This document shows, in pieces, positions 28,890 to 28,968 of a stretch of 64,000 nt of DNA. The notes under the pieces are model-generated. The model did not search any database and was not told where the DNA came from. It saw only the letters and a list, made by a program, of their open reading frames with translations. The DNA is from an uncultured Clostridium sp. (GTDB lineage: Bacteria > Bacillota > Clostridia > TANB77 > CAG-508): positions 13,027 to 77,026 of the forward strand of contig USCB01000004.1 in the NCBI GenBank assembly GCA_900553125.1, given 5' to 3'. Both the position numbers and the translations under genes were made by a program. Positions within the stretch are counted from its first letter, which is position 1; every line of letters begins with the position of its first letter.

Positions 28890-28968
28890 TTGGGTCCCGT
28901 TTTTGTTCCATTGGGACCGGGTCTTTTTGGTACAATGTTCTAAAAAGACCCGGTCCTTTTGGAACATT
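28890..28968. repeat. family B GC-rich palindromic element
   Basis: TTGGGTCCCG...CCATTGGGACCGGGTCTTTTTGG(10 nt)CTAAAAAGACCCGGTCCTTTTGGAACATT, between the frr stop and the pyrH start. Confidence 0.85.

Follow-up and report, generated by a model that had tools for sequence, protein, structure and literature searches.

The GC-rich palindromes described here, families A and B (the latter with subtypes B1 and B2), are probably subtypes of a single lineage-specific, interspersed palindromic DNA repeat that resembles REP/BIME elements or hairpin-type MITEs. The family is genuine and occurs in abundance across a clade of uncultured Clostridia of the human gut, and its copies are gained, lost, and wholesale replaced at the same gaps between related species, a pattern from which we infer transposition. 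The family itself is newly described here, and elements of this kind are well known.

The window (the whole stretch of 64,000 nucleotides that was analyzed) has about 28% G+C, is about 86% coding by rough ORF calls, and carries most of its genes on the minus strand. It contains two B units, one flanked by pyrH and frr and the other by cdaA and truA, together with family A elements, a composite, and a remnant, as follows.

12244 to 12362: three-arm composite in the gap between the maltodextrin phosphorylase gene and rnhA, with A arms at 12266-12281 (plus strand) and 12325-12340 (minus strand) and a hybrid B2 arm at 12294-12309 (minus strand).
25015 to 25067: family A element in the rseP-era gap, with perfect 26-nt arms.
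25819 to 25874: family A element in the cdsA-rseP gap; the L004 ortholog is a B1/B2 composite.
28884 to 28903: extra GC-containing piece, AAAAACGGGACCCAAAAGGGG on the sense strand, between the pyrH-frr element and the frr ribosome-binding site.
28904 to 28966: B1 element in the pyrH-frr gap, with core arms at 28913-28928 (plus strand) and 28942-28957 (minus strand) and the outer stem TGTTCCA/TGGAACA.
35203 to 35256: family A element downstream of holA.
36299 to 36360: family A element in the gap between the glycogen debranching enzyme gene and holA; the L077 ortholog is B2.
52069 to 52138: B1 element in the cdaA-truA gap, with core arms at 52081-52096 (plus strand) and 52111-52126 (minus strand).
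54663 to 54700: remnant in the rnhB-pdp gap, with an A-like arm, GGGGTCGGTTCTTTTT, at 54674-54689 on the minus strand and a short complement after it.

The 16-nt arm GGGACCGGGTCTTTTT has seven window matches at three or fewer mismatches (three exact and one with a single mismatch) against 0.06 expected from shuffles, and the family A arm GGGGACGGTTCTTTTC has five window sites. The hairpins that the sequence-only reading placed at the two main B positions are borne out. The pyrH-frr gap holds an inverted repeat at 28904-28934/28936-28966 with 31-nt arms that are 84% complementary, and the cdaA-truA gap holds one at 52069-52103/52104-52138 with 35-nt arms that are 86% complementary. As sense (minus-strand) RNA these units fold at -35.5 kcal/mol (z of -8.0) and -43.8 kcal/mol (z of -8.5), respectively, and in neither case did any of 200 shuffles fold as well. 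The loops had been given as 9 to 10 nt, but the unpaired or weakly paired tips measure about 10 to 13 nt. The pyrH-frr unit begins 0 nt past the pyrH stop codon (28967-28969, minus strand), and the orthologous gaps in loci L004, L010, and L118 carry B1 or B2 elements. The extra piece at 28884-28903 could pair with the neighboring arm and may be a decayed third arm; it is missing from the orthologous gaps of L010 and L118.

On the minus strand the cdaA-truA element is followed by the truA ribosome-binding site, GAGAGG, and the ATG at 52055. The truA ORF (51315-52103) runs through the element from a TTG codon (52103), and because the element ends just before the truA ribosome-binding site, this start is a false N-terminal extension, as the sequence-only reading had recognized; the TruA profile begins at residue 18, and the true start is the ATG at 52055. 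The element at 54663-54700 had been regarded as a diverged B relative, but its arm (54674-54689) is nearer to family A, with two mismatches as opposed to three to B, and we class it as an A-like remnant. Its hairpin pairs GGGGTC (54668-54673) with GACCCC (54684-54689) at -15.8 kcal/mol (z of -2.0). The rnhB-pdp gap of L103 holds the complete form, in which A is the left arm and B2 the right; next to this ortholog, the window copy is a deletion product that is shorter by about 22 bases and lacks most of the second arm. We note that another palindrome closely follows the pdp stop codon (53290-53364): an AT-rich inverted repeat of 32 bp that is perfect and has a spacer of 11 nt. It is without a U-tract, is followed by a promoter-like TTGCAA-17-TATAAT and a small gene for a 49-aa membrane protein upstream of cdaA, is unrelated to families A and B, and is present as a single copy in the window.

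Either a lack of further copies genome-wide or copies with no conserved palindromic structure had been named beforehand as findings that would count against a repeat family; the palindrome proved to be conserved, with the strong arm-to-arm covariation described below, and a scan of representative public genomes with the B1/B2 pattern returned at least 106 matching stretches. Of those listed, 97 belong to low-GC MAGs of uncultured Clostridia, most of which come from studies of the human gut, and nine are isolated matches in high-GC genomes that look like chance. Because the loci were picked with a B-type pattern, A counts are by-catch and both subtype proportions and context fractions are biased; the loci are part of each related genome, and their gene calls, made by greedy longest-ORF choice, are rough. 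Element density is about one per 5 to 8 kb. The window is 75 to 92% identical to related Clostridia MAGs over syntenic stretches and is identical to none, and exact-protein look-ups place its species in many human-gut metagenome assemblies. Only one IMG/VR contig (L108) matched, and a phage origin was rejected, as this sole match is the host flank of a same-species prophage. Nothing at the element sites reaches the Rfam gathering score, which rules out a known RNA family; at E values up to 10, the sub-threshold matches are all to long hairpins of a generic kind (microRNA precursors, for instance). Searches of the full-text literature, of which coverage is incomplete, found the core strings only in unrelated eukaryotic primers and sequences.

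The anatomy of the repeat was derived from 143 two-arm elements in the listed loci. The unit can be written 5'-T(G/T)-[4-nt variable box]-ATTG-GGACCGG(G/T)TC-T4-6-G(G/T)-[variable box]-loop-[mirror image]-3', and it is a single long palindrome, with the arms alone forming no consistent small hairpin. Stems have a median length of 24 bp and reach 56 bp, and loops have a median of 6 nt; 95% of the 3246 pairs are Watson-Crick and 46 stems are perfect, although arm pairing was scored without gaps, which understates pairing past T-runs of variable length. There are perfect 26- to 41-bp palindromes with loops of 0 to 2 nt, and some units are perfect over 31 to 41 bp per arm without any spacer. The arms are always arranged head-in (left and then right, with the T-run inside), and the reverse order, RL, never occurs alone. 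The core and T-run are near-invariant and the cores are almost always paired, whereas the 4-nt boxes outside ATTG and the boxes inside the T-run vary (1.6 to 1.9 bits). Nonetheless, the variable positions are paired in 62 to 72% of cases compared with 32 to 38% when partners are shuffled, and the G/T site that distinguishes B1 from B2 is paired in 95.7% compared with 63.5%. The two arms of each copy thus co-vary, and the question of whether sequence or pairing is conserved is answered with both: sequence in the core and pairing everywhere. Flanks shared between families A and B had also been proposed; a shared flank does exist, but it is ATTG(G) directly 5' of the core and lies within the stem. 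The ATTG beside the core is paired, and no conservation is seen outside the stem at positions -14 to -11 (entropy of 1.6 to 1.7 bits).

More complex arrangements include about 37 three-arm composites and units nested exactly at the center of another (L093 and L102). In four loci (L055 at ∼5265-5300, L051 at ∼3940-3980, L083 at ∼2600-2640, and L048 at ∼2500-2540) one flank carries two to three tandem 9- to 11-nt units that repeat the element's outer stem box, for example CATTTGTGC three times; slippage or recurrent insertion could have left these repeats behind.

The subtype cores are GGGGACGGTTC (A), GGGACCGGGTC (B1), and GGGACCGGTTC (B2), with B2 one base apart from B1. The relatedness of B to A suspected from the sequence alone holds up. 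The 16-nt cores match at 12 positions without gaps, and within the window the composite at 12244-12362 physically joins the two families through its hybrid arm GGGACCGGTTCTTTTT, the only place in the window where B2 is present and then only as the middle arm. In related genomes A, B1, and B2 share one architecture, chimeras combine an A left arm with a B2 right arm (e.g., L039, L066, L098, and L103), and the families replace each other at orthologous gaps. On this common architecture, the chimeras, and the replacements, A, B1, and B2 are best described as one superfamily. The core subtype is genome-specific, with 13 B1 arms and no B2 arms in CALXRJ and 4 B1 and 37 B2 arms in CAKPDO, counts that carry the bias of the B-type selection. 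We also note that a rumen Clostridiales MAG (L030, 5330-5409) and CALXRJ (L069, 656-693) have other long palindromes with a related core, GGGGACGGAG; these hint at a wider superfamily of GGGGACGG-cored hairpins.

The placement of these elements between co-directional genes, described from the window, is also the rule among the related genomes (112 of 133 classifiable elements). The counts, in fractions skewed by how the loci were picked, are as follows.

Co-directional genes: 112 elements, 536 of all gaps.
Convergent genes: 15 elements, 69 of all gaps.
Divergent genes: 6 elements, 72 of all gaps.

Seventeen cores that seem to be intragenic are mostly artifacts of rough gene calling. A typical stem starts 11 nt past the stop codon and is separated by another 11 nt from a Shine-Dalgarno-like motif (both medians); the units occupy the spacers between stop codons and ribosome-binding sites and are therefore transcribed inside operons.

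Turnover was assessed in 100 non-redundant comparisons of an orthologous gap that has an element with the same gap in other genomes, grouped by flank identity.

Flank identity of 92% or more: element absent in 1, same subtype in 12, different subtype in 9.
Flank identity of 85 to 92%: absent in 17, same subtype in 12, different subtype in 16.
Flank identity below 85%: absent in 18, same subtype in 5, different subtype in 10.
All comparisons: absent in 36, same subtype in 29, different subtype in 35.

Subtype differences extend to sites whose flanks are 96 to 99% identical. One gap has an A composite in USOM, differing B1 units in CALXRJ and CAKOVI, and none in CAKPNI. CAKOVI and USOM also have flanks that are 98 to 99% identical yet carry wholly different units (B1 versus B2), in which the boxes, the loops, and even the spacer to the start codon differ. 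Different-subtype pairs share no more non-core sequence (0.04/0.09) than random pairs (0.07/0.02), compared with 0.47/0.44 for same-subtype pairs, and most subtype changes are therefore whole-unit replacements. This lack of non-core similarity rules out swapping of the core in place as the main mode, although such swapping is plausible for the cdaA-truA copy. When the window is compared there with L008 (B2), the loop and right flank are retained and both arms have changed (left G to T, right C to A), which looks like an in-place change and runs counter to simple replacement. Large size differences at the L022 and L034 orthologous sites were considered as insertion sequences and turned out to reflect ordinary variation in gene content.

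Among contigs of the same species from human-gut metagenomes, 9 of 10 carry each B copy unchanged. The tenth contig differs in each case: at pyrH-frr (L118) it has a B2 unit, and at truA it is a prophage junction. No within-species movement was seen among the 10 contigs for each B copy. The window copies are also kept at the same gaps in relatives that are 84 to 92% identical, a persistence that also fits a host function. At greater distance, two of the same gaps hold ordinary AT-rich hairpins (L103 and L053), the one in the cdaA-truA gap of L103 being terminator-like. These ordinary hairpins suggest that resident hairpins may be a preferred target, and the nested units and three-arm composites could be replacement intermediates.

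In some same-species strains a prophage has integrated ∼63 nt into truA, beside the B element (window 51992-52142). The IMG/VR contig L108 (1-1525) is 99.3% identical to the window up to the prophage junction, past which lie genes for a tyrosine integrase and XRE-like regulators. L127 (∼1400-1510) has the other junction, where phage DNA gives a new ribosome-binding site fused to the truA start.

Several of these properties could be expected if the elements were host-selected RNA stem-loops that set mRNA stability or processing within operons, as RNase III sites or barriers to 3' exonucleases, and were repeated because one RNA-binding or processing factor recognizes the core. Their placement between stop codon and ribosome-binding site is exact, the RNA hairpins are predicted to be very stable, and copies are invariant within the species and retained among its closer relatives; the ordinary hairpins at the same gaps in L103 and L053 further suggest that a hairpin is wanted there. 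We nonetheless regard this explanation, including its account of the repetition, as unlikely. If folding of the sense RNA were under selection, G:U pairs should be tolerated and A:C mismatches should not, but among transition-type mismatches on the sense strand in co-directional contexts there are 30 G:U and 35 A:C. The pyrH-frr unit folds better as antisense RNA (-42.9 kcal/mol) than as sense RNA, and the three-arm composites have no orientation bias relative to transcription (13 LLR and 11 LRR). RNA-specific selection was rejected on the absence of a sense-strand G:U excess and of an orientation bias, and these observations point to DNA-level symmetry rather than a directional RNA element. 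Moreover, the 36 orthologous gaps without an element include several of merely 10 to 40 nt, and the perfect palindromes with almost no loop far exceed what a barrier needs.

We therefore return to an interspersed DNA repeat, for which the following mechanism can be proposed. A trans-acting function would recognize the 11-nt core and spread or replace units, with a preference for gene-end spacers and resident hairpins. The units would stay self-complementary through DNA-level processes, namely copying from master sequences and switching of template from one arm to the other, and not through selection acting on the sense RNA. Such template switching during replication is well established as a source of mutations in quasi-palindromes, making their inverted repeats longer and more nearly perfect (PMC8794818, PMC7202029). 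As the presumed mechanism here, it could yield perfect arms with variable boxes with no need for selection. Once transcribed, by analogy with other systems, a 20- to 40-bp hairpin would likely be an RNase III substrate and a 3' exonuclease barrier, roles that REP and Correia elements have in other bacteria.

Candidates for the mobilizing function were sought in the DNA at hand. A phmmer search with Escherichia coli RayT against six-frame translations of the window and about 740 kb of Clostridia loci gave no hit; the search itself works, with one hit (E = 8e-10) in an unrelated Udaeobacter locus, L088. An all-against-all comparison of 775 predicted proteins, a partial sample of each genome, revealed no multicopy transposase; a MITE, as the non-autonomous derivative of a DDE insertion sequence, would be expected to have a parent element with matching ends in its own or a related genome. 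The paralogs found are an AAA-ATPase/PD-(D/E)XK nuclease-domain protein, leucine-rich-repeat proteins, and acetate kinase-like duplicates, and these were rejected as mobilizers, none being a transposase or associated with the elements. There is likewise no sign of target-site duplication, as the direct repeats on either side of 121 elements do not exceed in length those seen when flanks are shuffled. In a more specific form of the proposal, the core would be the site of a lineage-specific, non-RAYT enzyme that inserts or copies hairpins without target duplication into gene-end hairpins and the apexes of resident elements, with new subtypes overwriting old ones. We hold this version to be quite doubtful; if true, it would be a structure-targeted, "homing-like" spread of a miniature element in the Firmicutes.

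The conserved core could instead be the object of interest, with the 10- to 11-nt sequence acting as a DNA recognition site for a host protein (an uptake sequence with dialects, or a nucleoid or topoisomerase site) and the hairpin being secondary. Such a site would account for a core that is lineage-specific and changes in concert over many sites, and a dimeric protein could bind the interrupted palindrome GACCNGGTC found in the B1 core or the ACCGGT of the B2 core. Set against this, there are essentially no cores inside genes, cores nearly always occur paired, complementarity reaches well past the core into the variable boxes, and the spacing is roughly 5 to 8 times sparser than that of known DNA uptake sequences, which occur about once per kb; we consider this very improbable. 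Rho-independent and possibly bidirectional termination is scarcely credible for these elements, for all that they are GC-rich stem-loops downstream of genes and have canonical terminator-like hairpins in their place at two gaps in distant relatives. The T-run is enclosed by the stem, where the A-run is its partner, and neither orientation has a U-tract, which rules out an intrinsic terminator on anatomy. The 3' flank is A-rich either way (108 of 141 left flanks have T at position -10), a sense-strand terminator scan does not call the elements, and their place is within conserved operons, with the next ribosome-binding site a median of 11 nt away. Canonical terminators in this genome are separate and AT-rich.

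Catalogs of REP-like repeats deal mainly with Proteobacteria, plus a few other phyla, and the REPs and REPINs of Proteobacteria are mobilized by RAYT tyrosine transposases, HUH/Y1 enzymes whose single-copy gene is flanked by the repeats. The elements described here resemble REPs, BIMEs, and REPINs in being short, high-copy, interspersed palindromes that are almost exclusively intergenic, between co-directional and convergent genes (PMC3733652, PMC3116915). Further likenesses are the lineage-specific types with variable occupancy of orthologous gaps, the clusters and composites, the lack of target-site duplication, and co-transcription with operons. However, they have no unpaired GTAG or CGTC tag, the marker of the REP superfamilies (PMC3733652), their stems are ∼24 bp (up to 40 bp or more) compared with 8 to 15 bp in REPs, and each unit is one long hairpin, whereas REPs are small units of 20 to 40 bp and REPINs are an inverted pair of these. 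They also differ in having no RAYT in the DNA sampled and in their host, a Clostridia lineage; a 2013 survey of REPs does not mention Firmicutes, and the phyla it names exclude them (PMC3733652). [quoted passage not shown] 2013, PMC3733652). The elements here are similarly palindromic with apparently no dedicated transposase, and the family A core contains CGTC/GACG, but this CGTC is paired, is inside both A arms, and is absent from B, whereas CGTC REPs have 8- to 9-bp stems, an unpaired terminal tag, and a CCA tail (PMC3733652). Since these elements lack the tag and the small stem that define REPs, the best-supported assignment is to a new family of the general REP-like kind and not to REPs proper.

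Other systems provide partial parallels. The Correia (NEMIS) elements of Neisseria and the ERIC elements are MITEs that are present in mRNAs and are cut by RNase III or RNase E. The likeness is in the intergenic inverted repeats, their co-transcription, and long hairpins able to alter mRNA stability. Correia elements, however, span 100 to 150 bp, duplicate a TA target, and have terminal inverted repeats of 26 bp around an interior that is not palindromic, whereas the whole unit is a palindrome here and the 121 elements examined, unlike MITEs, have no target-site duplication. Yeast mitochondrial GC clusters are short, GC-rich, palindromic, and apparently mobile within AT-rich intergenic DNA, and we know of no enzyme that moves them; they belong to a eukaryotic organelle and are unrelated in sequence, and the comparison is one of analogy only. 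The inverted pairs of DNA uptake sequences (DUS) in Neisseria have a conserved 10- to 12-mer with lineage "dialects" and are often downstream of genes, and the elements here are also inverted pairs of a conserved core with lineage-specific variants in such positions. DUS also occur singly and inside genes, at ∼1 per kb, and the pairs, with a U-tract after them, serve as terminators; the cores here, in contrast, are confined to intergenic DNA, nearly always paired, and without a U-tract.

These elements have consequences for annotation, as they cause false N-terminal extensions (as in truA) and spurious small ORFs in MAGs of a common uncultured gut bacterium. They also bring the REP-like life-style to gut Clostridia, with longer stems, no tag, and so far no RAYT, such that a different mobilizing activity is possible. 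Wholesale replacement of subtypes at identical gaps with 96 to 99% identical flanks provides a clean system for studying the creation, upkeep, and turnover of palindromes. With a 20- to 40-bp hairpin at about one operon junction per 5 to 8 kb, the elements could broadly shape mRNA processing, and their subtype and occupancy patterns could serve as fine-scale lineage markers.

The window has several other features of note. The minus-strand region at 19824-20370 looks like the remnant of a diversity-generating retroelement, with an RT-14 RNA (Rfam, 61 bits) at 19824-19975, an AAC-rich template-like repeat at 19976-20075, and a variable-like copy at 20262-20370 at the 3' end of the ORF 20267-20920. 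The two copies differ mainly at template adenines, and no reverse transcriptase gene is among the neighboring ORFs scanned. A 664-aa ORF with no Pfam match (20921-22915) contains three 432-nt tandem repeats that are 82 to 91% identical, and a (GT)n run of ∼12 or more units just upstream of it (∼23039-23070) could be a slippage-prone switch. A 91-aa N-terminal fragment of HsdM is encoded upstream of pyrH (30038-30313), where L109 and L118 (1-569) have a full-length type I restriction HsdR gene at the matching place; the type I restriction-modification locus thus varies between strains.
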